Position numbers and translations under genes: made by a program
Assembly: GCA_045657405.1 (NCBI GenBank)
Contig: JAZOTB010000002.1
Span: 32,523 to 96,522, forward strand
Length of the DNA: 64,000 bases
Direction of reading: 5' to 3'
DNA from: Candidatus Enterousia sp.
GTDB lineage: Bacteria; Pseudomonadota; Alphaproteobacteria; Rs-D84
The notes under the pieces: model-generated
Database searches by the model: none
The model's input: the letters and a program-made list of their open reading frames with translations, nothing else
What the model was told of the DNA's origin: nothing
Part shown: positions 1,792 to 43,484 of the stretch, piece after piece
Layout of the letters: each line of letters starts with the position of its first letter
Numbering within the stretch: the stretch's first letter is position 1

Positions 1792-2067
1792 TCAAGTGGC
1801 ATTTTGATTTTTTTCGCAGTAACCATCGCTGCAATAATACCCAATGCAACATCCAGCAGGACTTACATTACCTTTGTAAAAAACATCACTAACTGTACTT
1901 TGAATCTTCATATTGACGTAAATAACTTCAAAACTTGCCGGCGGATTTATTTGTGACAGCAATTTATTGCCATAAAAAATTTTTATTGGACTAGATTCCG
2001 AACTAATATAAATACGTACCCGTGGAACAATTGTTGCCTTCGTTTTTTTTATCCATTTTACCATCAT
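1792..2067 (-). CDS. hypothetical small protein with Cys-rich C-terminus (GCCIGYYCSDGYCEKN)
   Basis: 91-aa ORF whose ATG (2067..2065) abuts the ptb stop codon (2070..2068). A terminator follows. No family recognised. Confidence 0.35.
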   Translation of the reverse strand: MMVKWIKKTKATIVPRVRIYISSESSPIKIFYGNKLLSQINPPASFEVIYVNMKIQSTVSDVFYKGNVSPAGCCIGYYCSDGYCEKNQNAT

Positions 2068-2967
2068 TTACTTGATTATACTGCACGCGCACGCAATTGA
2101 AAATAACTTTGAAATATCGCCGTCTGAACGTGAATTAATTATCACAGGCGCCTGTGCACCAACAACAATACCACCAAAAATCCAATCACCAAATTGTACC
2201 ATTGCTTTGATAGTATTATTACCAGCCTCTATATTATCAAATAACAATATATCTGCATCACCTTGGATTCGACCATTGTATTGTTTGATTTTTGCGGCAT
2301 CCGCAGACACAGCAATATCAAACGATATCGGACCACTGATAATACAACCTGAAATTTCGCCATTTTCGTTCATTTTTTGCAACACATCTGCATCAACTGT
2401 TGCCTGCATCGCTGGGTTTAGCGTTTCAACAGCACAAAGGGGCGCAACCAACGGATTTTTTATACCTATATGATGTGCAACCGATACTGCATTTTTTACC
2501 AACTGAATCTTCTTATCTAAATCTGGATACGGCACCATTGCAATATCTGTTAAAAATAATTTACGCTGCAATTTTGGTGAATACAGTACAGAAACGTGTG
2601 ATAAAATACCATTTCCACGAATACCCGTTTCACGATTTAATACGGCACGCAAAATATCCGCAGTATGAATTAAACCCTTCATTAAAATATCTGCGCGCCC
2701 AGAACGAATCAATGACACAGCCATCGTTGCGGCACTTAATTCATTTTCACAATGAATAATTTCAAACGAAGATATATCAACCCCGTTTTCATGTGCAACT
2801 GATTTAATTTGTTTTTCGTCACCACACAGAATTGCGTTTATAAACCCCATTTTATGCGCAGTTTGTAATGACAATAAAACATTTGCATCCGTAGCGTTTG
2901 CTACAGATATTGTGCGCATTTTTTCTGGTCGCAAAGATAATAATAATTTTTCAAATTCTGTATTCAT
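2068..2967 (-). CDS. ptb: phosphate butyryltransferase-type phosphate acyltransferase (PTA_PTB family)
   Basis: Track ORF 2068..3042. Start trimmed to ATG 2967 (MNTEFEKLLLSL...) because the longer form overlaps the upstream porin gene. Collinear with clostridial Ptb as I remember it (ILMKGL..TA..LRAVLN, LFLTD.A, AP.VI.SR.D). Confidence 0.8.
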   Translation of the reverse strand: MNTEFEKLLLSLRPEKMRTISVANATDANVLLSLQTAHKMGFINAILCGDEKQIKSVAHENGVDISSFEIIHCENELSAATMAVSLIRSGRADILMKGLIHTADILRAVLNRETGIRGNGILSHVSVLYSPKLQRKLFLTDIAMVPYPDLDKKIQLVKNAVSVAHHIGIKNPLVAPLCAVETLNPAMQATVDADVLQKMNENGEISGCIISGPISFDIAVSADAAKIKQYNGRIQGDADILLFDNIEAGNNTIKAMVQFGDWIFGGIVVGAQAPVIINSRSDGDISKLFSIACACSIIK

Positions 2968-2975
2968 AATAATAC

Positions 2976-4004
2976 CTAGAAAGTTATTCGCAGACCCGCA
3001 GATATAAATGGCGTTTCTGATGTCATGCCACCTGATATCCAACCGTCAATATTTTCACTGTATTTATATCTGAACGATGCAACAACAGTATTATCAATAA
3101 AATCATCAACTTCACCTTGCCAAACACCCGTATCCGATAACATATATGTCAAAGAAACACTATACTTCAAAACATCATAACTAACACCTGTTCCAACAAC
3201 AAAACCGTCAGACACAGCACCAATTGGATCTTGGTCATATATCACACGACCAGACAAACCAAAAATCCAACTATTATACTGTAAATTCATCCCTAATGAC
3301 ATTTGTGCGCGCCAATCTGCAGTAACGCCAGGTGTATATATTTCATTATCAAAATTATTAGGACGATTCATAAAGGACAAGCCTACAGAATATGCGGATT
3401 TTAATTTTCCAGATGATTGGCGTAATTTTAACCCTGCATCAACTGCCCAATCATAATTATCCGTTATACCAGATACAGATACGCCATACTGGGTACCGTT
3501 ATTTGAATTAGAAACAATATTCATGCGCAATGAATTACTGCGACCAGATGTTAAAACAGTATCTGCAATAACAGCGCCATCAGGAATAATTTTTTCATTA
3601 TACAAAGGTCTATCATTTATACGCAAACCGCCAACATCAGGCAACCCAAGCCCCAATTTTCTGGCAATAGAATCTGTAAAACCAACCTCTATACGACCCA
3701 GATTATCAGATTGAACAAATCCAAAAATTTCACGTGAAAAATAACCTTTATCTAGTGCCGCCTTGTCCAAAGCATAAACAAATCCTAGACTTGTATCTTC
3801 AAAAGAAGTATTTGTTATTTGTCCACGAACACGCCAATCACCAATAGACAATGGCGTTTCAATATCCGGATTTATCATACCAACAGTACCATAACCAGTT
3901 ACTTTTAATGAATTTTTTCCTGCATTGTATTCCAATGCATTCGCAATCTGTGGCAGTCCGAACAACAGAACTGACACAATTGATATATTTTTTATCCAAG
4001 CCAT
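2976..4004 (-). CDS. outer-membrane beta-barrel porin-like protein
   Basis: Signal peptide MAWIKNISIVSVLLFGLPQIANA, alternating Gly/Tyr-rich beta-strand pattern, and a C-terminal ...GLRITF ending in Phe (OMP signature). Confidence 0.6.
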   Translation of the reverse strand: MAWIKNISIVSVLLFGLPQIANALEYNAGKNSLKVTGYGTVGMINPDIETPLSIGDWRVRGQITNTSFEDTSLGFVYALDKAALDKGYFSREIFGFVQSDNLGRIEVGFTDSIARKLGLGLPDVGGLRINDRPLYNEKIIPDGAVIADTVLTSGRSNSLRMNIVSNSNNGTQYGVSVSGITDNYDWAVDAGLKLRQSSGKLKSAYSVGLSFMNRPNNFDNEIYTPGVTADWRAQMSLGMNLQYNSWIFGLSGRVIYDQDPIGAVSDGFVVGTGVSYDVLKYSVSLTYMLSDTGVWQGEVDDFIDNTVVASFRYKYSENIDGWISGGMTSETPFISAGLRITF

Positions 4005-34400: not shown

Positions 34401-36395
34401 TTAATCTAATTTATATTCTTCACCGATATTATATTCCGTACCTAATTCAATAATGTTTTTATCGTCACCAGATTGCCCCAGTTCTGATGCGCTGCACATC
34501 ATACCAAACGATTCAACACCTGCGACTGTGCGCTGTGACATTGGCTTTTTCATACCTGGTAATTTTGCCCCAACTGGCGCCAGAACACCACATAAACCAA
34601 CATGTACATTTGGCGCACCACATACAATCTGTACATTTTCACCGGCACCCGTATTTACAGACAGAATATGTAAATCTTCACGTGATGGGTGATTTTTTAC
34701 ATCTACAATTTCTGCAACAATTGGTTTTGGTGTATTATCTGGTTTTTTTACAGTATATTTTTCTGTAATCATCGCAACTGTTTCATCGTCAATACGATTA
34801 AACAAGTTTTCTGGCACAACAAATTCATCACCGTCATTTATACGATGTTCATAAACATTTGGCCACGATAAATCATGTATTGGCTTGAATATGTTTTGCA
34901 TTTTTTCTGCTGCATTTGGAATAACTGGTGCAGATACACGTGCAAACAAATCAATCATCTGCATACATTCATTTAATACAGCACCAGCACCATCCATATC
35001 GCCATTTTTAACCATTGCCCATGGTTCCATTTTGGTCATATATTCATTACCGATTGCATATAATCCACGTAATGCAGCGATTGCATTTCTGAATTCACAC
35101 GCATCCAGCGCAGCAGTCAACGCAGATAGTTTTTCATTTATTTGTGATTCCAACTCTGGATTTTTATCACCCTTGGCAGGAACAATATTACCAAAATTTT
35201 TCTGTGTTAATTTGCAAACACGACTTACAAAATTCCCCAGCATACCGTTCAAATCTTTGTTAACAATATCCGCAAAACGAGATACGGTAAAATCTGTGTC
35301 ATCTGTTTCTGGCGCACTTGCCAACAATGCATAACGCCAACAATCTGCTGGTGCGATTGTAATTGCATCATTCAAGAAAATTCCATTACCTGTTGATTTT
35401 GATACTTTGGCACCTTCAAAATTCAAAAAGTTCATTGCCTTTAACATATCAACTGTTTTCCAGTTATCGTTCATAGCAAGTTCTTGGGATGGAAAGAATA
35501 TAGAATGAAAAGATACATTATCTTTGCCCATAAATTGCGCATAATGAACATCATCACCACCATGCCACCAATCCGCCCAATTTTCATTTGCAGCCTGAGA
35601 TATTGAAACATAACCCCATGGCGCATCAAACCAAACATAAAACACTTTGTTTTCATACCCTGGTTTATTTACAGAAATACCCCATTTCAAATCGCGTGTA
35701 ATTGGGCTGTCACGTAAACCTTCGTCCAACCATTTATTTGCGATTGCCAGTGCTGTTTTTGGCCATCCAATACGTGAATCAATCCATTTGCGCAAGATGT
35801 CTTGCATTGCGCTAGTCTTGAAATACATGTGTTTTGTTTCACGCATTTCAACAGGCGATTCAGGATCAACTGCACTGCGTGGATTAATTAACTGGGCAGG
35901 CTCAAGATTTGCGAAACATTTATCACATTCGTTTCCATATGCATTTTCATAACCGCATTTTGGGCATGTACCAATTACAAATCTGTCTGCCAAGAACTTT
36001 TCTTCTTTGATAGAATAAGGCTGCATAGAAGATTTTTCTTCCAGCATTCCTTGTTCCTGCAAACGCACAAATAATTTTTGAATTAACTTCTCGTGTAATT
36101 TTGTATGTGTACGACCATATAAATCAACAGACAAATTAAAATCTTGAACCGCCTGGACCTGAGGCTTGCGGTACTTTTCCACATATTCTTCAACAGGCAT
36201 ATTTTCTTTGTGCGCGCCAATTTCACTGGCAGTACCATGTTCGTCTGTACCACAAACATACAAAACATCACGACCCATTGCGCGACAAAAACGTGCATAA
36301 ACATCACTTGGTAAATAACAACCAATCAAATGACCAATATGTAGATTATTGTTAACGTATGGTAAAGCAGATGTAATTAAATATTTTTTTGCCAT
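34401..36395 (-). CDS. metG: methionyl-tRNA synthetase with C-terminal tRNA-binding (Trbp111-like) domain
   Basis: ALPYVNNNLHIGH (HIGH); Zn knuckle CPKCGYENAYGNECDKC; KVSKSTGNG (KMSKS); C-terminal ...HPSREDLHILSVNTG...QIVCGAPNV. Confidence 0.95.
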   Translation of the reverse strand: MAKKYLITSALPYVNNNLHIGHLIGCYLPSDVYARFCRAMGRDVLYVCGTDEHGTASEIGAHKENMPVEEYVEKYRKPQVQAVQDFNLSVDLYGRTHTKLHEKLIQKLFVRLQEQGMLEEKSSMQPYSIKEEKFLADRFVIGTCPKCGYENAYGNECDKCFANLEPAQLINPRSAVDPESPVEMRETKHMYFKTSAMQDILRKWIDSRIGWPKTALAIANKWLDEGLRDSPITRDLKWGISVNKPGYENKVFYVWFDAPWGYVSISQAANENWADWWHGGDDVHYAQFMGKDNVSFHSIFFPSQELAMNDNWKTVDMLKAMNFLNFEGAKVSKSTGNGIFLNDAITIAPADCWRYALLASAPETDDTDFTVSRFADIVNKDLNGMLGNFVSRVCKLTQKNFGNIVPAKGDKNPELESQINEKLSALTAALDACEFRNAIAALRGLYAIGNEYMTKMEPWAMVKNGDMDGAGAVLNECMQMIDLFARVSAPVIPNAAEKMQNIFKPIHDLSWPNVYEHRINDGDEFVVPENLFNRIDDETVAMITEKYTVKKPDNTPKPIVAEIVDVKNHPSREDLHILSVNTGAGENVQIVCGAPNVHVGLCGVLAPVGAKLPGMKKPMSQRTVAGVESFGMMCSASELGQSGDDKNIIELGTEYNIGEEYKLD

Positions 36396-36416
36396 TTTAT
36401 TTTTCCCTTTGCCTGT

Positions 36417-36446
36417 ATAAAAAAATAGACGCCAACGGGGCGTCTA
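36417..36446 (-). terminator. intrinsic terminator in the metG 5' leader / after tRNA-Val(GAC)
   Basis: On the - strand: AGACGCC-ccgtt-GGCGTCT followed by aTTTTTTTa, ending about 30 nt before the metG ATG. Confidence 0.7.
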
Positions 36447-36475
36447 AATAAGATTCCCGTTGATTTTTTTCAAAA

Positions 36476-36493
36476 TTAAATTTGCATTCGCAT
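36476..36493 (-). other. mini-ORF MRMQI in the metG leader (possible leader peptide)
   Basis: ATG CGA ATG CAA ATT TAA on the - strand, preceded by AAGGA at 10-nt spacing. It lies 13 nt upstream of CAACGGG (36462..36456), which is complementary to the terminator loop region. Confidence 0.3.
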
Positions 36494-36517
36494 TATTAAT
36501 TCATCCTTCTAAGAACC

Positions 36518-36594
36518 TGGTGGGTGGTATTGGGCTCGAACCAACGACCTTTACGATGTCAACGTAACGCTCTAGCCAACTGAGCTAACCACCC
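36518..36594 (-). tRNA. tRNA-Val (anticodon GAC), CCA encoded
   Basis: The reverse complement folds as a cloverleaf: acceptor GGGTGGT/ACCACCC, anticodon stem TTACG/CGTAA with loop TT-GAC-AT, T-arm GTTGGTTCGAGCCCAAT. Confidence 0.9.
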
Positions 36595-36694
36595 AAAACA
36601 AGACGATTATAACAAAGAAAAACCGAAAAGCAAATATTTATATCAAATATATATGGAAAATAAAAAAAAGATATATTATAGTTCTTCAACAGTT

Positions 36695-36770
36695 GCCGGT
36701 ATAGCTCAGTTGGTAGAGCATCTCATTCGTAATGAGGGGGTCGTAGGTTCAAGTCCTATTACCGGCACCA
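36695..36770 (+). tRNA. tRNA-Thr (anticodon CGU), CCA encoded
   Basis: Acceptor GCCGGTA/TACCGGC, anticodon loop TT-CGT-AA, T-arm GTAGGTTCAAGTCCTAT. Confidence 0.85.
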
Positions 36771-36774
36771 GAAA

Positions 36775-36802
36775 TAAAAATCCCCAAACGGGGATTTTTT
36801 TG
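36775..36802. terminator. bidirectional intrinsic terminator
   Basis: ATCCCC-aaac-GGGGAT with A5 upstream and T7 downstream. Confidence 0.75.
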
Positions 36803-36825
36803 AATATAAATTATGTTTTCAAATA

Positions 36826-37218
36826 TTATTTTATATTGCTTTTGAAACTTTCAACAAAAACAGCCAGTGTTTGTTGTGTTTGTTGTCTGAACATTTCTTT
36901 TTCTTTGTTCACAAATAAATTGTGCATTTTTTTGATGAATTCTACATCTTTAAAAGTTTCTTTTAATACATTATTTTGACTGCCAGATTTAGCTTCAGCA
37001 AATATAACCAAAGCAGTTACTTCTTTGCCATATTCCTTGGTATGGAATACAAAGACATTCTTTTCAAAGCCATTGATTTTCCATTCTTGCTCATCACTAC
37101 CGGCACCCAATGCCCTGACTGTCTTTGATACAGTTTTACCCTTTAAGGCAGTTTTTGTGCAATTGAAAATGTCGTTCTGCATTGCTTTTTTTTCATTTGT
37201 TGTTGAAGCACTTTTCAT
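36826..37218 (-). CDS. hypothetical protein (130 aa)
   Basis: ORF divergent from the ileS leader. No signal peptide and no recognised motif. Confidence 0.45.
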   Translation of the reverse strand: MKSASTTNEKKAMQNDIFNCTKTALKGKTVSKTVRALGAGSDEQEWKINGFEKNVFVFHTKEYGKEVTALVIFAEAKSGSQNNVLKETFKDVEFIKKMHNLFVNKEKEMFRQQTQQTLAVFVESFKSNIK

Positions 37219-37287
37219 ATCATATACCTTTATTCTGCAAATCAGAATAACACAACAATTTTAATTGTCAATTTATTAATACAATGC

Positions 37288-37316
37288 TTGCTTTTTAGTT
37301 TTTTAGCGTGTACAAT
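37288..37316 (+). promoter_or_regulatory. sigma-70-type promoter TTGCTT-17-TACAAT for the ileS leader
   Basis: -35 at 37288..37293, -10 at 37311..37316. The predicted TSS coincides with the leader ATG at 37324. Confidence 0.5.
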
Positions 37317-37323
37317 CCGCCGT

Positions 37324-37356
37324 ATGAAACAAACAACTATAATTATTATTAAATAA
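37324..37356 (+). CDS. putative ileS leader peptide MKQTTIIIIK
   Basis: ATG AAA CAA ACA ACT ATA ATT ATT ATT AAA TAA: four consecutive Ile codons. It lies between the promoter and the terminator, upstream of ileS. Confidence 0.55.
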   Translation: MKQTTIIIIK

Positions 37357-37363
37357 TCGGCAC

Positions 37364-37389
37364 TGCGCTTTGGCGGTGGCTGGGGCGCA
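37364..37389 (+). promoter_or_regulatory. putative antiterminator hairpin of the ileS leader
   Basis: TGCGCTTTGGC (37364..37374) pairs with GCTGGGGCGCA (37379..37389): 11 bp including 4 G-U, with loop GGTG. Its 3' arm contains the terminator 5' arm. Confidence 0.45.
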
Positions 37390-37405
37390 TAGACGCCCCT
37401 TTTTT
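37382..37405 (+). terminator. intrinsic terminator of the ileS leader (attenuator)
   Basis: GGGGCG-cataga-CGCCCC followed by T6. It ends 31 nt before the ileS ATG. Confidence 0.75.
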
Positions 37406-37436
37406 AATGATAAAATGAATACGGAGTATATAAAAT

Positions 37437-40400
37437 ATGACATACCCAAAAACAGACTTGCGCGCGGATTTTCCAACACTAGAACAACAAGTGTTACAAT
37501 ATTGGCGTGAAAACAATACCTTTGATAAAACACTACAAAAAACAAAGCAAGGTCATCCTTTTAATTTCTTTGATGGACCTCCATTTGCAAACGGTATTCC
37601 GCATTGGGGGCATTTGGGTGTAACGGTTGTAAAAGATATGGTGTCGCGCTTTCAAACAATGAACGGTAGATATGTAAACCGTGAACTTGGTTGGGACTGT
37701 CATGGCTTACCCGCAGAAAATTCCGTTGAAAAGAAAGTAGGTAAATCTGCAAAAAACATCGTTGCAGACGATGGCATAGAAGCGTTTTGTAACATGTGCA
37801 AAACAGATGTTATGACATATACAAACGAATGGGATAAATTTATTGAACGTATGGGTCGCTGGGTGAAAATCGGTAACGAATACGGCTATAAAACCATGAA
37901 TAAAAATTATATGGAATCTGTAATGTGGACATTAAAGACATTACATGATAAAGGGCTGTTATACAAAGATTACAGCGTTAATCCATACGATTGGGTCAAT
38001 GGTACTGTTATCTCTAATTCCGAAGCATCCAGTGATTATCGTGAAATAGTTGATGATGCTGTGACTGTTTGGTTTGAATTAGAAAACGGCGACCGTGTTA
38101 TCGCATGGACAACAACACCATGGACATTACCTGCTAACTCTGCTTTGGCAGTGAATCCAAACATGGAATATCTGCGTATGCAAGATATAGATAAAAATGT
38201 TTACGTTGTTGCAAAAAGCAGACTGACTGCATACGAAAAACAATTTGCAAACGCAACAGAAATTGAATGTATCAAGGGTTCGGATTTGGTCGGCAAACAC
38301 TATACACCACTGTTCCCATATTACACAGGACAATCTGATTTATTATTCCAAGTTATACCTGCAGATTATGTATCAGATAGCGATGGTACAGGTATTGTTC
38401 ATATTGCGCCTGCGTACGGTGCCGAAGACTTTTGGGCCGCTAAAAATCTTGATGCAAAATTCCCAGTTTTATTAAATGTTGATGACTATGGAAATTTTGA
38501 TGAAACAGTTGTTGATTTTGCAGGCGAAAACATATTTGTTGCAACACCACGTATTATGGATTGGTTAAAACAAAATGGCAAATTGGTAAAAAAAGAACAA
38601 TATAAACATAGTTATCCTTTTGGTGATCGCAGTAAAGAAAAACTGATTCAGCGCGCAACAGATTCTTGGTATATTGACGTACCAAAAATCAAAGATAAAT
38701 TATTAGCAAATAACGCGACTGTAAATTGGACCAGCGCAGGCGAACGTTTTCGCACATGGATAGAAGGCGCACGCCCTTGGTCAATATCACGCAATCGTTT
38801 CTGGGGTATGCCACTGCCAATTTGGGAAAAAGATGGCGAATTCAAAATATTTGGCTCAATCGCAGAACTGGAAGAATTCTTTGGTGTACCTGTCACAGAT
38901 TTGCATCGCCCAACATTAGATAAATTAACACGTGATGGATGGAAACGTATTCCTGATGTCTTGGACTGTTGGGTAGAAAGCGGTTCTATGCCATGGGCAT
39001 CGTTACATTATCCGTTTGAAAACCAGGATAAGTTTAATACAACTTTCCCTGCGGATTATATTATTGAAGGACAAGACCAAACACGTGGTTGGTTTTATGC
39101 ATTAATGGTACTGGCAACGGCATTGTTTGATAAACCTGCCTTTAAGGCGGTATCTGCAAATGGCATGGTTGTTGATGAAAACAAAAAGAAATATTCTAAA
39201 TCATCAAAGAACTATGTTGACCCAGAACAACAAATTGAACAATATGGCGCAGATGCGGTACGTTTATTCATACTAGGCTCAAACTTTATGAAGGCAGAAC
39301 CTGTATTAATTGATAACGAAGGTAAAGTATTTACAGAAGCGTCAAAAACAATTCAAACACCACTGTGGAATGCGTATCATTTCTTTACACTATATGCAAA
39401 CGCAGGCAATATTGTTGCAAAATATATGACAAATCCAGAAAAACCAATGGATAAATATATATTGGCAGAATTGAATTTGTTAATAGAAAGTGTTACAAAT
39501 TCTTTGTCTGAATATAAACCAGATGCAGCAATCAAAGATATTATCAAATTCTTGGATATATTGAACAACTGGTATATCAGACGTTGTCGTGCACGCATCT
39601 GGAACGAAGAACAAGATGCATTTGATACATTATATACCGTACTGGCTACATTATGTCGTGTATTGTCACCATTCGCACCATTTGTTTCAGAATACATATA
39701 TCGTAATTTAACAAATGAAGAATCTGTTCATTTAACAGATTGGCCAACAGCAGATAAATTTGATAAAAAAATTATTGACGATATGCGTCGCGTACAATCA
39801 ATCGTATCTGTTGGTAATCAACTGCGCGAACAGTATAAATTACGAAATCGTTTGCCATTAAATTCATTAACTATCGCTGGTGTAAACATGCCTGACTATG
39901 CAGATATAATCAAAGACGAACTGAATGTAAAATCAGTTAAATTTGACAACAATATCGCAAGTGTTGCAGATAGTTTTATTTATCTAATTACACCAAAAAT
40001 CGGTGCACGTTTAGGCGGTGCATTAAAGGACATAATTCCATCTGTTAAACGTGGCGAATACAAAATCGTTGGTGATAAATTATTGGCCGCAGGATATGAA
40101 TTAAATGCAGATGAATTTGAAAATCGTTTAACTATCAAAAATGATGTTTCTGGCGCAGCATTACCAGACAACACAGCTGTTGTTGTATTGGATACAGAAT
40201 TAAATGCAGATTTAATTGCAGAAGGCTTAGCAAACGACGCTTTGCGATTTATCCAAAACACACGCAAAACAGCAGGTCTAGATGTTTCTGATCGTATTAT
40301 CCTGACATATAATGCGGATCCTGCAGTCGCAACAGCAATTGAACAATACAAAAAACACATTATGCACGAAGCACTGATTGTTGATATGCAAATCGGTGAT

Positions 40401-40460
40401 GGCGAATATAGCACTGAATTTGAAGGATATAATCTGGCTGTATCTGTCAAAAAAGCATAA
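37437..40460 (+). CDS. ileS: isoleucyl-tRNA synthetase, type 2 (eukaryote-like) form
   Basis: 1007 aa. FNFFDGPPFANGIPHWGHLG (type-2 style HIGH region); KYSKS (KMSKS variant); editing domain; C-terminus lacks the CxxC zinc cluster of type-1 IleRS. GGAG SD at 37423..37426. Confidence 0.95.
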   Translation: MTYPKTDLRADFPTLEQQVLQYWRENNTFDKTLQKTKQGHPFNFFDGPPFANGIPHWGHLGVTVVKDMVSRFQTMNGRYVNRELGWDCHGLPAENSVEKKVGKSAKNIVADDGIEAFCNMCKTDVMTYTNEWDKFIERMGRWVKIGNEYGYKTMNKNYMESVMWTLKTLHDKGLLYKDYSVNPYDWVNGTVISNSEASSDYREIVDDAVTVWFELENGDRVIAWTTTPWTLPANSALAVNPNMEYLRMQDIDKNVYVVAKSRLTAYEKQFANATEIECIKGSDLVGKHYTPLFPYYTGQSDLLFQVIPADYVSDSDGTGIVHIAPAYGAEDFWAAKNLDAKFPVLLNVDDYGNFDETVVDFAGENIFVATPRIMDWLKQNGKLVKKEQYKHSYPFGDRSKEKLIQRATDSWYIDVPKIKDKLLANNATVNWTSAGERFRTWIEGARPWSISRNRFWGMPLPIWEKDGEFKIFGSIAELEEFFGVPVTDLHRPTLDKLTRDGWKRIPDVLDCWVESGSMPWASLHYPFENQDKFNTTFPADYIIEGQDQTRGWFYALMVLATALFDKPAFKAVSANGMVVDENKKKYSKSSKNYVDPEQQIEQYGADAVRLFILGSNFMKAEPVLIDNEGKVFTEASKTIQTPLWNAYHFFTLYANAGNIVAKYMTNPEKPMDKYILAELNLLIESVTNSLSEYKPDAAIKDIIKFLDILNNWYIRRCRARIWNEEQDAFDTLYTVLATLCRVLSPFAPFVSEYIYRNLTNEESVHLTDWPTADKFDKKIIDDMRRVQSIVSVGNQLREQYKLRNRLPLNSLTIAGVNMPDYADIIKDELNVKSVKFDNNIASVADSFIYLITPKIGARLGGALKDIIPSVKRGEYKIVGDKLLAAGYELNADEFENRLTIKNDVSGAALPDNTAVVVLDTELNADLIAEGLANDALRFIQNTRKTAGLDVSDRIILTYNADPAVATAIEQYKKHIMHEALIVDMQIGDGEYSTEFEGYNLAVSVKKA

Positions 40461-40478
40461 TAAAAAAGGGCGTATAAA

Positions 40479-40619
40479 ATGGTATGCACGAACAATATTT
40501 GTCCGTTAAATAAAAATACAAAATGTACAAACGAAATGACATATTGTATTGCACGTAATTTATATACTGTGCAACAACAAATACGCGCATACCATTTATA
40601 TACAATAAACCAAAGGTAG
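40479..40619 (+). CDS. hypothetical small Cys-rich protein (46 aa)
   Basis: Hand-translated: MVCTNNICPLNKNTKCTNEMTYCIARNLYTVQQQIRAYHLYTINQR. AAGGG SD. Begins 18 nt after the ileS stop. Below the ORF-track size cutoff. Confidence 0.35.
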   Translation: MVCTNNICPLNKNTKCTNEMTYCIARNLYTVQQQIRAYHLYTINQR

Positions 40620-40623
40620 TAAC

Positions 40624-41064
40624 ATGAAAAATTACTGTGGTAACATTCAAAAAAACTGTCCGAACAAAACACAAGACGGTGTTTGCAAAGTAGATGGTTA
40701 TCTACCAGAAACATGTACAACTTGTAAATTCCTTGTTGAAACAGATTTTCCAGAAATAGGCTTTCTGATAAAATACGCATACAATATTTATAATGGCACT
40801 AAAAGTGTAATAAATATTTCAAATGGTATTTACGGAACATGGCCTGAAAATTTATATTGTGAACAGATTGAAAAATTCTGTCCGCATCAAACATTGGGTG
40901 GAAAATGTAACAGACGCGAATGTCTGATATACGACCAAAGTTGCCATAGTCAAATAGATTTTAGTAAAGATATTGAACTGATTACACGATTGTTGCAACG
41001 TATTCATATAAAAATAGAAAATCAACAAAAACAAATACAAGAACTGCAACAAAAACTGAAATAA
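40624..41064 (+). CDS. hypothetical Cys-rich protein (146 aa) with two copies of a YC-x6-CP-x7-C motif and a C-terminal coiled coil
   Basis: YCGNIQKNCPNKTQDGVC... and YCEQIEKFCPHQTLGGKC...; C-terminal QKQIQELQQKLK. AAAGG SD. 4-nt gap after the previous small ORF. Confidence 0.5.
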   Translation: MKNYCGNIQKNCPNKTQDGVCKVDGYLPETCTTCKFLVETDFPEIGFLIKYAYNIYNGTKSVINISNGIYGTWPENLYCEQIEKFCPHQTLGGKCNRRECLIYDQSCHSQIDFSKDIELITRLLQRIHIKIENQQKQIQELQQKLK

Positions 41065-41074
41065 AGGATAAAAA

Positions 41075-41194
41075 ATGGCAAAGTATTGCAGAACTTTTTC
41101 ATATAAATGCAGTTATTGTTCTCGTACAGGTGAATGTAATGGCCACGGTATCTGTCGCGACAGTTTTGAAATTAATCCAACACCAGAACAATAA
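41075..41194 (+). CDS. hypothetical small Cys-rich protein (39 aa)
   Basis: Hand-translated: MAKYCRTFSYKCSYCSRTGECNGHGICRDSFEINPTPEQ. AAGGA SD 7 nt upstream. Confidence 0.35.
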   Translation: MAKYCRTFSYKCSYCSRTGECNGHGICRDSFEINPTPEQ

Positions 41195-41283
41195 ATGCTG
41201 ATATTTCATTTTTTATAACAGAAAAAACAAAACGATATGATTATATATCAACTTAGAAAATTAAATAAAGGGATCTAAAACAA

Positions 41284-41931
41284 ATGACACCACAGCAATA
41301 TTTTGATTTGGTTATTCCGACTGTTGATATGTCTATACGGTCAGAATTGTATCACACAAACGAATTTAATTTTGCTGTGGCGGTTATTTTATCTGCCCAG
41401 GCAACCGATAAAAAAGTAAACGAAGTTACACCTGAATTATTTCGCGTTGCGCCAACACCACAAAAAATGCTGGAACTGGGGATTGATGGGTTAAAAGAAC
41501 ATATTCGCGTTATATCTTTCTTTAATAACAAGGCGAAAAACATTATTGCATTGGCGCAAAAATTAGCAGACGAAAATATATCAGATACTTTTTCAGAAAA
41601 ATATCATAATCGCGATACATTAATGACACTTCCTGGAATTGGACAAAAGACAGCAAATGTTGTTTGTAATGTATTGTGGGGTGCGCCAAACATTGGCGTT
41701 GATACACATGTTTTTCGTAATGCACACAGATACGGATGGGTTAAGGAGTCAGATAACACACCTGAAAAAGTAGAAGAAAAGTTATTAAAAACAATCCCAA
41801 AAAAATATCATGCTGTTGTAAATCATGTTATGGTTTTACATGGACGATATGTATGCAGTGCACAACGTCCAAAATGCGAAAACTGTCCTGTGGCGCACAT
41901 TTGCCCACACACAGGAAAACGTACCAATTGA
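41284..41931 (+). CDS. nth: endonuclease III
   Basis: HhH-GPD motif LPGIGQKTANVV...GVDTHV and the C-terminal 4Fe-4S cluster C-x6-C-x2-C-x5-C (CSAQRPKCENCPVAHIC). Confidence 0.9.
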   Translation: MTPQQYFDLVIPTVDMSIRSELYHTNEFNFAVAVILSAQATDKKVNEVTPELFRVAPTPQKMLELGIDGLKEHIRVISFFNNKAKNIIALAQKLADENISDTFSEKYHNRDTLMTLPGIGQKTANVVCNVLWGAPNIGVDTHVFRNAHRYGWVKESDNTPEKVEEKLLKTIPKKYHAVVNHVMVLHGRYVCSAQRPKCENCPVAHICPHTGKRTN

Positions 41932-42040
41932 AAGATTATATAAAATTATATAATATGTATATCACAGACACTGCATGACAAGAAAAGGACTTTCTACAAG
42001 ACCCGAACCCACATCCCTAGGTGCAATGTTTGTTCATAAA

Positions 42041-42066
42041 GAAAGCCGGCAAACACCGGCTTTTTC
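42041..42066. terminator. bidirectional intrinsic terminator
   Basis: GCCGG-caaaca-CCGGC with AAA upstream and T5 downstream. Confidence 0.65.
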
Positions 42067-42479
42067 TATTTTTGTATTTGATATATTTCTGGAAATAAAA
42101 TCTGACCAATTGTTCCACAAATATTTTTATCTTTGCACAGGCCGCACTGTATGTTTTTTGCACAAAGAGAAGAATTATCGCGACTATTTTTTACATTTCT
42201 TTTATTACAACATTTCATCTTTTTTAAACGAATATCTATTGATAATTCACTTTGTATTGGACTTTGTAATTTCATGTCATTATGTAACCAACACTGTGTA
42301 TTATATGAAATAATAATATCGTCTGCACAAGATTGCTTATCTGCTTTTCTTTCTGACAAGGCACTAACCAACTCTAATGCCTTTTCTTTGGCAATATCAT
42401 CACACAATTGTATTTTACCCAGATGAAAGGAAAAATCAGCCTCCATAAAAACCCTTGTGTTTTTTTCTTTGTTATTCAT
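42066..42479 (-). CDS. hypothetical protein (137 aa) with Cys-rich C-terminus
   Basis: AAGAGG SD 6 nt upstream. The C-terminal LCAKNIQCGLCKDKNICGTIGQILFPE resembles the motif of the 40624..41064 protein (YCGNIQKNCPNK...GYLPE). Confidence 0.45.
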   Translation of the reverse strand: MNNKEKNTRVFMEADFSFHLGKIQLCDDIAKEKALELVSALSERKADKQSCADDIIISYNTQCWLHNDMKLQSPIQSELSIDIRLKKMKCCNKRNVKNSRDNSSLCAKNIQCGLCKDKNICGTIGQILFPEIYQIQK

Positions 42480-42551
42480 GATACGCCTCTTTATTATTTT
42501 TGTATAAAAATTATAGTAAATTTGCGATATATGTCAAACTTATATATTTAT

Positions 42552-42580
42552 TTGCGATTGGAGATTTTAGGGACTATAAT
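42552..42580 (+). promoter_or_regulatory. sigma-70-type promoter TTGCGA-17-TATAAT for fabD
   Basis: -35 at 42552..42557, -10 at 42575..42580, about 28 nt before the fabD ATG. Confidence 0.5.
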
Positions 42581-42608
42581 ATAATTAGCAATAAAAAAAA
42601 GGTTATAT

Positions 42609-43484
42609 ATGTCATCTATATTTGTATTCCCAGGTCAAGGTGCGCAAAGCGTTGGCATGGGCAAAGAATTATACGATAATAACGCAGATGCACGTGCAGT
42701 ATTTGATGAAGTTGATGCAGCACTGGGTGAAAAATTATCAGATATTATTTTCAATGGCCCAATGGAAGAATTGACACTGACTGCGAATGTTCAGCCAGCA
42801 ATTATGGCTACATCAATCGCAATGTTACGCGCCAGTGGTGTACAATTACCAGAATATGTCGCTGGACATAGTCTTGGTGAATATACCGCTTTATGCGCAG
42901 CGGGCGCATTATCTGTTGGCGATACCGCAAAACTGTTGCGTACACGTGGCAATGCAATGCAAAGCGCAGTACCTGTTGGCCATGGTTTGACCGCTGTTAT
43001 TTTGGGAATGGAAATTGATGCATTGCGTAAAATTTGTGATGATGCAGGCTGTGATGTTGCAAATGATAACAGTGCAGGTCAGGTTGTAATTTCTGGTGCC
43101 AAAGATGCTGTAGAAACTGCAATGACAATGGCCAAAGAACAAGGGGCAAAACGTGCAATGCCTTTGGCACTGTCTGTACCTGTACATTGTCGTATCCAAC
43201 AACCGGCGGCAGATGCGATGATGATCGCACTAGAAAATGTTGAAATAAACAAACCATCCGTACCATTGATTTCAAACAAAACATGCCAGCCTTTGATAGA
43301 TGTTAAGGAAATCAAAGATGCGCTTGTTTATCAAATGACGCATAGTGTTCGCTGGCGCGAAAGTGTTTTGAATATGGCAGAATTAGGGATTACAGATATG
43401 ATAGAAATTGGCCCAGGTTCTGTTTTAACGGGTCTATGTTCACGTATTACAGATAAAATAACCGCTAAGAAATTGGAGATATAA
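42609..43484 (+). CDS. fabD: malonyl CoA-ACP transacylase
   Basis: FPGQGAQ..GMG; active-site GHSLGEY; 291 aa. Confidence 0.9.
   Translation: MSSIFVFPGQGAQSVGMGKELYDNNADARAVFDEVDAALGEKLSDIIFNGPMEELTLTANVQPAIMATSIAMLRASGVQLPEYVAGHSLGEYTALCAAGALSVGDTAKLLRTRGNAMQSAVPVGHGLTAVILGMEIDALRKICDDAGCDVANDNSAGQVVISGAKDAVETAMTMAKEQGAKRAMPLALSVPVHCRIQQPAADAMMIALENVEINKPSVPLISNKTCQPLIDVKEIKDALVYQMTHSVRWRESVLNMAELGITDMIEIGPGSVLTGLCSRITDKITAKKLEI

Follow-up and report, generated by a model that had tools for sequence, protein, structure and literature searches.

Comparative sequence evidence for a lineage-restricted family of small four-cysteine proteins encoded between ileS and nth in Candidatus Enterousia

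Comparison across related loci identifies the four-cysteine units encoded between ileS and nth as a real, fast-evolving and lineage-restricted family of small proteins. The unit is about 65 aa long and carries four invariant cysteines in the arrangement Y-C1-x(6-13)-C2(P)-x8-C3-x(5-14)-C4, with G-x preceding C3; a short beta strand and then an amphipathic helix lie downstream of the cysteine region, and the residue following C2 is not always proline, since CA, CS and CL variants occur. It occurs either in a two-unit protein (137-161 aa) or in a single-unit protein (67-76 aa). We think it probable that these are soluble cytoplasmic metal-binding mini-proteins, holding zinc or an Fe-S centre, that are co-expressed with isoleucyl-tRNA synthetase (IleRS) and endonuclease III (Endo III). 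The analysed DNA, hereafter the window, is a stretch of 64,000 nucleotides from a Candidatus Enterousia-like gut alphaproteobacterium of the order Rs-D84, whose genomes measure about 0.9 Mb; reduced genomes with about 90% coding sequence are characteristic of the genus (PMC12306168), and the unit genes have been retained in them, a point in favour of this reading.

The features discussed below are the following.

1792..2067, minus strand: 91-aa ORF with a Cys-rich tail, of putative coding status
37437..40460, plus strand: ileS, type-2 isoleucyl-tRNA synthetase of 1007 aa, first in a presumed operon
40479..40619, plus strand: 46-aa ORF, a basic four-Cys mini-protein (pI 9.1) supported by conserved clusters
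40624..41064, plus strand: 146-aa two-unit ORF, supported by homologs, internal duplication, an AF2 model and dN/dS
40624-40818, within the preceding ORF: N unit, approximately residues 1-65
40840-41064, within the same ORF: C unit and long helix, approximately residues 73-146
41075..41194, plus strand: 39-aa ORF, covering the Cys region at the 5' end of a disrupted single-unit paralog of 67 aa
41195..41278, plus strand: decayed 3' end of that 67-aa gene, recognised by aligning the DNA with intact copies at loci L015, L016, L021 and L023
41284..41931, plus strand: nth, endonuclease III of 215 aa, last in the presumed operon
42040..42065, plus strand: hairpin resembling an intrinsic terminator, situated where nth and the 137-aa gene converge
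42066..42479, minus strand: 137-aa ORF, a Cys-rich orphan convergent with nth and with a family of its own

The unit family and its locus

The coordinates, lengths and sequences that the preliminary description gave for the 46-, 146-, 39-, 137- and 91-aa ORFs are all correct, except that the 91-aa ORF lies on the minus strand, which had gone unmentioned. Its observation of two motif copies inside the 146-aa protein is borne out: profiles of the N and C units align with an hhalign probability of 96.1% (E 3.5e-9), and the single-unit family aligns with the units at 94.5% (E 8e-8). Homologs of the 146-aa protein are 34-97% identical to it, and its eight cysteines, four per unit in the pattern Y-C-x6-C(P)-x8-C-x(5-14)-C followed by a short strand and a helix, are invariant family-wide. 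These comparisons identify the 146-aa ORF as a real gene formed by tandem duplication of the unit. The two-unit profile also recovered a 70-aa single unit (P0028).

How far does the family extend among the cysteine-rich ORFs of the window? A unit HMM built without any window sequence was run on all 1843 six-frame ORFs, and it retrieved the 146-aa ORF with E 5e-36 and, second best in the window, the 39-aa ORF with E 1.3e-4, a score matched by none of 1000 composition-matched shuffles. The proposal that all five ORFs form a common family holds for these two and fails for the remainder, the 46-aa ORF scoring E 1.0, the 91-aa ORF E 15 and the 137-aa ORF being absent from the match list. A search in six frames with the originally proposed expression, C-x(4-6)-C-P-x(6-8)-C, returns five distinct sites against 1.5 expected, three of them within 40485-40908; the C-P pair is absent from the 39-, 137- and 91-aa ORFs, and the 46-aa family does not conserve its proline. 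For three of the five ORFs linked with the 146-aa protein, having a loose cysteine motif in common did not amount to belonging to its family.

The AF2 model of the 146-aa protein (pLDDT 79.7, pTM 0.75) was obtained after adding six further homologs to an input of nine sequences that had yielded an unusable pLDDT of 46. Each unit is predicted as a strand, Cys loops, a strand and a helix, the loops being modelled with lower confidence (block pLDDT 56-79). Helices are predicted at residues 43-56 and 115-145, the latter in agreement with the helical tail noticed earlier. Foldseek returned no fold match with E below 1 from PDB or BFVD. The earlier failure to place the motif in a known family is also borne out: in searches extended to E 10, no Pfam or NCBIfam model reaches threshold for the unit family (the best stray match is zf-C3H1, E 0.016, in one of 15 members), PADLOC gives no hits, and searches of PHROGs (E 0.075 or worse) and of PDB sequence profiles yield noise only. 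A Kyte-Doolittle scan finds neither a signal peptide nor a membrane segment, the maximal 15-residue mean being at most 0.8 in every protein and no N-terminus being hydrophobic; the small Cys proteins have a pI of about 8-9. The best reading of these sequence properties is that the unit proteins are soluble and cytoplasmic.

The surroundings of the cassette are conventional. Orthologs of ileS match the Pfam models tRNA-synt_1, Anticodon_1 and DUF5915, and the window ileS is 80-88% identical to those at related loci; nth matches HhH-GPD and EndIII_4Fe-2S as well as TIGR01083 (E 1e-60), and has its own Fe-S loop, C-x6-C-x2-C-x5-C. As described earlier, each of the three tandem ORFs that follow ileS is preceded, 7-12 nt upstream, by an AAGG-type Shine-Dalgarno sequence, and no terminator separates them from ileS: the plus strand has just two terminator-like sites, at 37382-37399 before ileS and at 42040-42065 after nth, with none in between. 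The Rfam search of 36000-43000 found two tRNAs and no other structured RNA. The unit-gene cassette is co-oriented with both flanking genes, and to judge from spacing only, ileS, the small genes and nth may share a single transcript.

We compared 24 fetched loci spanning the ileS-nth junction, together with partial loci. Each of the 24 carries one or more intact unit genes at the junction, seven architectures being represented, and at these and the partial loci alike the unit genes lie between the two core genes on the same strand; beyond the ileS-nth pair the gene content varies. The last unit gene sits just upstream of nth (in the window and one relative a remnant takes that place) and in most loci abuts or overlaps its start, as in L001 (6420/6421) and L002 (6644/6644). 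The taxonomic range is narrow. A search of 1.84 billion representative proteins gave only 10 family hits, a metagenome-contig scan with the two-unit alignment found nothing, and all genome-derived loci with a named organism belong to Ca. Enterousia or to unclassified alphaproteobacterial gut MAGs.

Conservation of the reading frames and dN/dS, proposed earlier as a check on the small ORFs, argue for their being genes. The unit genes have dN/dS of 0.16-0.59, compared with 0.05-0.12 in ileS and nth, and therefore appear to be under purifying but relaxed selection. The window two-unit protein is only about 40% identical to its counterparts in sister lineages, against 85-93% for the ileS and nth of those lineages; this divergence, the high dN/dS and the repeated pseudogenisation described below show that constraint on the unit proteins is weak, and they are also compatible with a role that is non-essential or conflict-related.

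Neighbouring cysteine-rich reading frames

The 39-aa ORF had been listed as the third of the tandem ORFs. DNA alignment indicates that it is no gene of its own but what truncation has left of a 67-aa paralog (MAKYC...RKLNKEF), orthologs of which are intact in L015-L024. The first in-frame lesion is a CAA to TAA change at 41192-41194; a second premature TAA follows at 41216-41218 in the decayed 3' part, where the frame is intact and the ancestral stop at 41276-41278 is retained. Nonsense mutations have thus removed the helix and left the Cys part only, and 'pseudogene fragment' is the appropriate annotation for the ORF. The intact 67-aa gene shows third-position bias (14/6/22 variable columns per codon position, p = 0.01). 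In L010, a 98.5% identical strain, the same paralog instead carries a 13-nt deletion in the region of this 3' part, and in L014 just nine codons of it are left. The single-unit gene has been disrupted in three different ways, only ever alongside a two-unit gene, and loci that lack the two-unit gene have it intact (L021-L027).

The 46-aa ORF, in contrast, is by the comparative evidence a real gene, of a family separate from the unit proteins. Its product has the pattern C-x4-C-x7-C-x6-C followed by a conserved RAYHLY tail, and the family comprises six protein clusters in which every member is exactly 46 aa long, 57-100% identical and equipped with four invariant cysteines; one cluster (P0032) is 100% identical to the window product, for which an exact look-up returned no record. 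In the window's clade the gene is invariably the first after ileS. Its dN/dS is 0.21-0.67, and its variable columns favour the third codon position only weakly (13/14/22, p = 0.23). The warning that the small ORFs would escape standard annotation does not apply to this one, which is already called as a gene in public NCBI, JGI and ENA records. Could it be a minimised unit? The two look alike by eye in their order of elements (Cys loops, then an I-x-R-x-L-Y helix start), and the profile and shuffle tests do not support the likeness: hhalign against unit profiles gives 0.25% and 0.4%, the aligned stretch being an 8-residue helix start, and four family members compared with their own shuffles on the unit HMM give p = 0.02, 0.10, 0.27 and 0.27. 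The motif likeness whose distinctness from background had been put in question thus exceeds it for the 39-aa ORF and not for the 46-aa family, and descent of the 46-aa protein from a unit is retained as a doubtful possibility.

The family had further been thought to flank nth on both sides, on account of the 137-aa ORF. The 137-aa ORF has a family of its own at 58-98% identity, and the gene is always divergent from fabD, including in L011, L012 and L014, where it is apart from nth; the comparison indicates that it is a distinct orphan gene, conserved in its own right, whose linkage is to fabD and not to nth. Its hhalign probability against the unit is 0.1%, and the 'NIQ...LPE echo' of the 146-aa protein noticed in it is attributable to chance. 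The 91-aa ORF, also proposed as a relative, found no support for membership: an exact look-up of its product gave no record of a called gene, and a metagenome-contig scan with it found no relatives.

Possible roles of the unit proteins

What could such proteins do between a translation gene and a repair gene? We infer the putative metal binding from the four invariant cysteines that each unit carries in a cytoplasmic protein, and from that feature only. In the probable case that the unit proteins are metal-binding mini-proteins, the four cysteines of a unit would hold one metal centre, either a structural Zn(II) or an Fe-S cluster, and the helices, long and Q/K-rich at the C-terminus, would mediate oligomerisation or partner binding, with Endo III, IleRS or nucleic acid as candidate partners. 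The small genes would be transcribed together with ileS and nth, and in most loci, judging from spacing only, translation of the last intact unit gene might be coupled to that of nth. The one-unit and two-unit forms may be functionally redundant, so that one can decay while the other is present. Against a metal site stand the cysteine spacing, which has neither the CxxC knuckles of classical zinc ribbons nor the CxxCxxC of ferredoxins, the variable proline after C2, and the failure to find a relative in sequence or fold.

A narrower reading would make the unit proteins dedicated Fe-S proteins that serve the [4Fe-4S] cluster of Endo III as donor, chaperone or redox partner and are translationally coupled to it. 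The contact of a unit gene with the start of nth in most loci fits this, as do the four invariant cysteines, often with C-P, and the cluster-loop spacing C-x6-C-x2-C-x5-C that the 67-aa subfamily happens to match; in E. coli, nth shares a transcript with the Fe-S-rich rsx/rnf genes. The match depends, however, on C15, which is exclusive to the 67-aa subfamily, and the unit is not homologous to the nth cluster loop (hhalign against nth 0.1-0.5%), a result on which its derivation from that loop is rejected. Linkage to ileS is equally strict, and present data do not discriminate Fe-S from Zn. We regard this explanation as unlikely.

A bolder proposal, to which we attach rather little probability, is that the Cys4 proteins represent a new class of metallo-cofactor subunit, obligatorily co-produced with and bound to Endo III or type-2 IleRS, with the one- and two-unit forms as interchangeable stoichiometric variants. 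In one version, the Endo III cluster of these reduced-genome gut Alphaproteobacteria would be delivered, protected or redox-tuned in trans by an Fe-S or Zn module of this kind; in another, the module would replace the zinc domain absent from type-2 IleRS. If they do bind metal and partner either enzyme, they would constitute a new small accessory subunit of a universal DNA-repair or translation enzyme, one that arose in an uncultivated gut lineage with genomes under about 1 Mb, where the genes that are kept tend to matter.

Alternatively, instead of a housekeeping accessory, the cassette might be a selfish or conflict-related insert that turns over quickly at a hotspot between the two core genes, for example a small toxin/antitoxin pair, an anti-phage element or an anti-MGE element. 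The variable content with its seven architectures, the raised dN/dS, the divergence from sister lineages behind well conserved ileS and nth, the repeated pseudogenisation and the truncated or frameshifted metagenome variants (P0022, P0029, P0030) are all compatible with this scenario. Yet the occupants are all homologous units save the 46-aa gene, with no changing unrelated cargo; at least one unit gene is always retained, tightly packed and in the orientation of the flanking core genes; integrase, repeats and tRNA are all absent from the junction, and so are matches to PADLOC and PHROGs. A selfish insert consequently seems improbable.

The idea that the small ORFs encode secreted disulfide-rich peptides or RiPP precursors, raised in the preliminary description, is very improbable: their high cysteine content and small size (46 aa is within the RiPP-precursor range) are outweighed by the lack of a signal peptide or hydrophobic segment, by the N-terminal Cys region and conserved C-terminal tail of the 46-aa protein, the reverse of the usual leader-core order, and by the absence of a maturase, protease or ABC exporter between ileS and nth at every locus. 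That ORFs and motif are chance products of AT-rich sequence is hardly credible, even though the 46-, 137- and 91-aa likenesses to the unit are no better than chance and codon-usage log-odds (28 long training genes), which did not clearly separate nth either, separate no small ORF from out-of-frame ORFs; the 146-, 46- and 137-aa ORFs have conserved full-length homologs, invariant cysteines and dN/dS below 1, the 39-aa ORF lines up nucleotide by nucleotide with 67-aa genes that are intact, and chance origin is refuted for these four by the comparative data.

Comparison with known systems

The closest general analogues of the unit proteins are DksA/TraR-type zinc fingers and zinc-ribbon mini-proteins, which are likewise small, soluble and cytoplasmic, with four cysteines per module beside a long helix; many small C4 zinc-binding proteins of this kind exert their effect through a larger enzyme or a nucleic acid to which they bind. 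The unit differs in that its Cys region precedes the helix, that its fold has no PDB match, and that its invariant cysteines, which match no Pfam model at threshold, include no conserved CxxC pair of the kind found in a classical C4 zinc ribbon or finger. The ferredoxin motif CxxCxxCxxxCP is absent from the unit family. RiPP precursors are a poor parallel, the neighbours being ileS and nth at every locus and the Cys region N-terminal.

The Endo III/MutY cluster loop shares its C-x6-C-x2-C-x5-C spacing with the 67-/39-aa subfamily (YCRTFSYKCSYCSRTGEC), which is encoded immediately upstream of nth. Family-wide, however, the cysteines are spaced x6-13, x8 and x5-14, and the subfamily match makes use of an extra cysteine; on this comparison the resemblance is a coincidence and not a sign of membership. 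Type-1 bacterial IleRS carries, fused to the enzyme, a C-terminal zinc-binding domain with two Cys4 sites made of CxxC pairs, so that there, as with the unit proteins, Cys4 sites are linked to isoleucyl-tRNA synthetase. The window IleRS we take to be type 2 (DUF5915 C-terminus), without the type-1 zinc domain. None of the searches revealed sequence similarity between the unit proteins and that domain, and in many bacteria type-2 IleRS has no such extra protein.

With lineage-specific orphan (DUF-type) proteins the units share their lack of annotation and their narrow taxonomic range. Unlike most orphans, they combine a fixed operon position between housekeeping genes with modular repeats and the birth and death of paralogs: unit duplication, paralog redundancy and repeated pseudogenisation all occur within one genus and at one fixed locus, which makes the family a compact example of small-protein evolution.

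The unit family and its setting

The Cys4 unit proteins are a real, lineage-restricted and modular family locked between ileS and nth, the genes of isoleucyl-tRNA synthetase and endonuclease III (Endo III), and the window carries in addition a dead single-unit paralog and an unrelated 46-aa mini-protein with four cysteines. All ORFs of the preliminary description are found in the window with the sequences quoted there:

37437-40460, + strand, ileS
40479-40619, + strand, 46-aa ORF, first of three tandem ORFs after ileS
40624-41064, + strand, 146-aa ORF, second tandem ORF
41075-41194, + strand, 39-aa ORF, third tandem ORF
41284-41931, + strand, nth, with its ATG at 41284
42066-42479, - strand, 137-aa ORF, convergent with nth
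1792-2067, - strand, 91-aa ORF

The spacers from ileS through the 46-, 146- and 39-aa ORFs measure 18, 4 and 10 nt, and each tandem ORF has, as described, its own ribosome-binding site of the AAGG type. Terminator-like hairpins on the + strand occur only before ileS (37382-37399) and after nth (42040-42065), in agreement with the reported absence of a terminator between ileS and the tandem ORFs; given this distribution, a single transcription unit seems to run from ileS through the small ORFs to nth.

Full-length homologs (34-97% identity) identify the 146-aa ORF as a genuine gene, and it is built from two copies of one unit. The homologs keep eight invariant cysteines, four per half, and the duplication perceived earlier is recovered by separate N-half and C-half profiles, whose mutual match has 96.1% probability (E 3.5e-9). 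The unit follows the pattern Y-C1-x6-C2(P)-x8-C3-x(5-14)-C4, with G-x ahead of C3, and C4 is followed by a short V/I-x-V/L strand and an amphipathic helix, whose sequence is GFLIKYLYxI in the N-terminal copy and ELITRLLQxxH in the C-terminal one. The AlphaFold2 model, which rose from pLDDT 46 with 9 sequences to a mean of 79.7 with 15 (pTM 0.75), predicts strand, cysteine loops, strand and helix in each unit, the helices spanning residues 43-56 and 115-145.

Relatives of the 146-aa protein are confined to animal-gut MAGs labelled Candidatus Enterousia or unclassified Alphaproteobacteria, and HMMER, run exhaustively with a profile against 1.84 billion representative proteins, returned only 10 matches to the family. 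Enterousia belongs to the uncultured order Rs-D84, with genomes mostly below 1 Mb and about 90% coding (PMC12306168). The closest cluster to the window's protein, P0023, is 65% identical. Against its sister lineages L014 (1436-1903) and L015 (2653-3120), identity falls to 40-42% (dN about 0.58), compared with 85-93% for the neighbouring ileS and nth; this suggests that the protein either diverged very fast or was replaced by a divergent allele. Values of dN/dS point to purifying but relaxed selection on the unit genes, at 0.16-0.59 (two-unit gene) and 0.16-0.38 (67-aa single-unit gene) beside 0.05-0.12 for nth and 0.07-0.11 for ileS.

Three metagenomic two-unit relatives (P0022, P0029, P0030) have an intact first unit and an unrelated C-terminal half. 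In P0036, a relative of the 46-aa protein, AKWQTYARATY replaces SQQQIRTYHLY, resembling a compensated frameshift. Each of the four variants reflects either a further natural disruption or an error of assembly.

Arrangements of the junction and decay of the single-unit gene

Across the window and the full set of 29 fetched loci of relatives (L001-L029), scans with profiles of the unit, the 46-aa protein, nth and ileS reveal seven gene arrangements.

Gene arrangements between ileS and nth (2U, two-unit gene; 1U, single-unit gene; ψ1U, disrupted 1U; 46, 46-aa gene)
ileS-2U-nth: L001, L028
ileS-2U-1U-nth: L002-L005, L007-L009
ileS-1U-2U-nth: L006
ileS-1U-nth: L025, L026
ileS-46-2U-1U-nth: L015-L020
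ileS-46-1U-nth: L021-L024
ileS-46-2U-ψ1U-nth: window, L014

Three partial loci fit this scheme (L010, ileS-46-2U-ψ1U-nth type; L027, 1U-nth; L029, ileS-2U), and no junction-spanning locus lacks an intact unit gene. The outer neighbours of the pair vary (S15/truB/mutS, sspB/SMC, a MreB-family gene or fabD), and the conserved block is therefore ileS, cassette and nth.

What is the 39-aa ORF? Single-unit genes of 67-76 aa adjoin the two-unit gene in relatives, and their family shows a match of 94.5% probability (E 8e-8) to the units that make up the two-unit protein. In the window's clade this gene encodes 67 aa (MAKYC...RKLNKEF; L015-L024), and the window aligns with it base for base apart from two differences, both premature stops:

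41192-41194, + strand, CAA to TAA, codon 40
41216-41218, + strand, GAA to TAA, codon 48
41276-41278, + strand, ancestral stop, just ahead of the nth ATG

On this DNA alignment the 39-aa ORF is evidently the stump of a single-unit paralog; its proposed link to the family holds, its standing as a gene does not. The strain at L010, 98.5% identical, has lost 13 nt at this position and differs further by four nucleotides, causing three amino-acid changes, and L014 retains only nine codons; together with the window's stops this makes three independent lesions. All three lesioned genomes still hold the two-unit gene, and loci without it (L021-L027) have an intact single-unit gene.

At L023 (2654-2857) and L024 (576-779) the 67-aa gene is intact, has a GTG start and is absent from the public gene calls; standard annotation thus tends to miss this gene and not the 46-aa ORF. 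The 67/39-aa subfamily also displays the Endo III cluster spacing, C-x6-C-x2-C-x5-C. We treat this likeness to the cluster loop as coincidence: it depends on an extra, subfamily-specific cysteine, and profile comparison of the unit proteins with nth finds no similarity.

Neighbouring orphans and the ileS leader

The preliminary description, which had linked all five small ORFs in one family, holds in part. The family's location directly after ileS is retained; the members proposed outside the ileS-nth interval, and the 46-aa ORF, fall away. The latter is a real gene of its own, always first after ileS in the window's clade (ileS identity 87-94% within, 80-86% to other loci). Its family comprises six protein clusters, each of exactly 46 aa and 57-100% identical, with four invariant cysteines and a conserved RAYHLY tail. 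Its dN/dS is 0.21-0.67, and with little third-position bias (13/14/22 variable columns, p = 0.23) the coding case leans mainly on fixed length, invariant cysteines and fixed position. No relation to the unit is detected by hhalign (0.25% and 0.4%) or the unit HMM (E 1.0 for the window's ORF), the scores of family members do not rise above those of composition-matched shuffles (p = 0.02, 0.10, 0.27, 0.27), and the supposedly shared C-P reads C-A in one of the clusters.

The 137-aa ORF is one of a separate family of conserved orphan proteins (135-147 aa, 58-98% identical; conserved cysteines 26, 51, 90, 91, 106, 112 and 115, CC-x14-C-x5-C-x2-C), for which we found no known family or function. 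Kinship with the 146-aa protein is contradicted by hhalign against the unit (0.1%), by the variability of its fourth 'motif' cysteine (NICG) within its own family, and by its genomic position, always divergent from fabD-fabG-mnmG even where nth lies elsewhere. The 91-aa ORF starts directly after the stop of a 324-aa ORF (2068-3042, - strand). A 130-aa ORF (36826-37218, - strand), divergent from ileS and without a match in Pfam or NCBIfam, is another fast-evolving orphan, since its 131-aa counterpart in L014, identically placed, shows 50% identity over 120 aa.

The ileS leader (37340-37405, + strand; directly upstream of the ATG at 37437) hardly varies among 9 loci with ileS proteins that diverge by as much as about 20%. 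Its sequence, CAATAATTATTATTAAATAA...GCGCTTTGGCGGTGGCTGGGGCGC-loop-GCGCC-TTTTTT, can fold into two mutually exclusive hairpins, one with an 11-bp stem (UGCGCUUUGGC/GCUGGGGCGCA) and the other a terminator (GGGGCGC/GCGCC) followed by a U-run. It looks like a transcription attenuator over ileS and the downstream genes; Rfam holds no match, and the stems are invariant, so that covariation speaks neither for nor against the hairpins.

Possible role of the unit proteins

Each unit may coordinate a single metal centre, Zn or Fe-S, by way of its four cysteines, and the helices might serve oligomerisation or the binding of a partner. Single- and two-unit forms would be redundant, and their expression would be coupled to ileS and nth. 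A helper dedicated to the Fe-S cluster of Endo III is an unlikely alternative, though the last unit gene usually adjoins or overlaps the nth start codon. Less probable again is a conflict-related or selfish insert. Secreted or RiPP peptides are very improbable: with no hydrophobic segment, the small proteins are unlikely to leave the cell by the usual routes, and disulfides would not be expected in the cytoplasm. Chance ORFs, the faintest prospect, concern only the 91-aa ORF, rejected as a family member (unit HMM E 15) and without any record or relative found. Pfam, NCBIfam, PHROG and PADLOC contain no family matching any of the small proteins, PDB sequence profiles yield only noise, and Foldseek finds no fold match in PDB or BFVD. 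The unit family is new as a family, while its general kind is familiar, that of small cysteine-rich putative metal-binding proteins.
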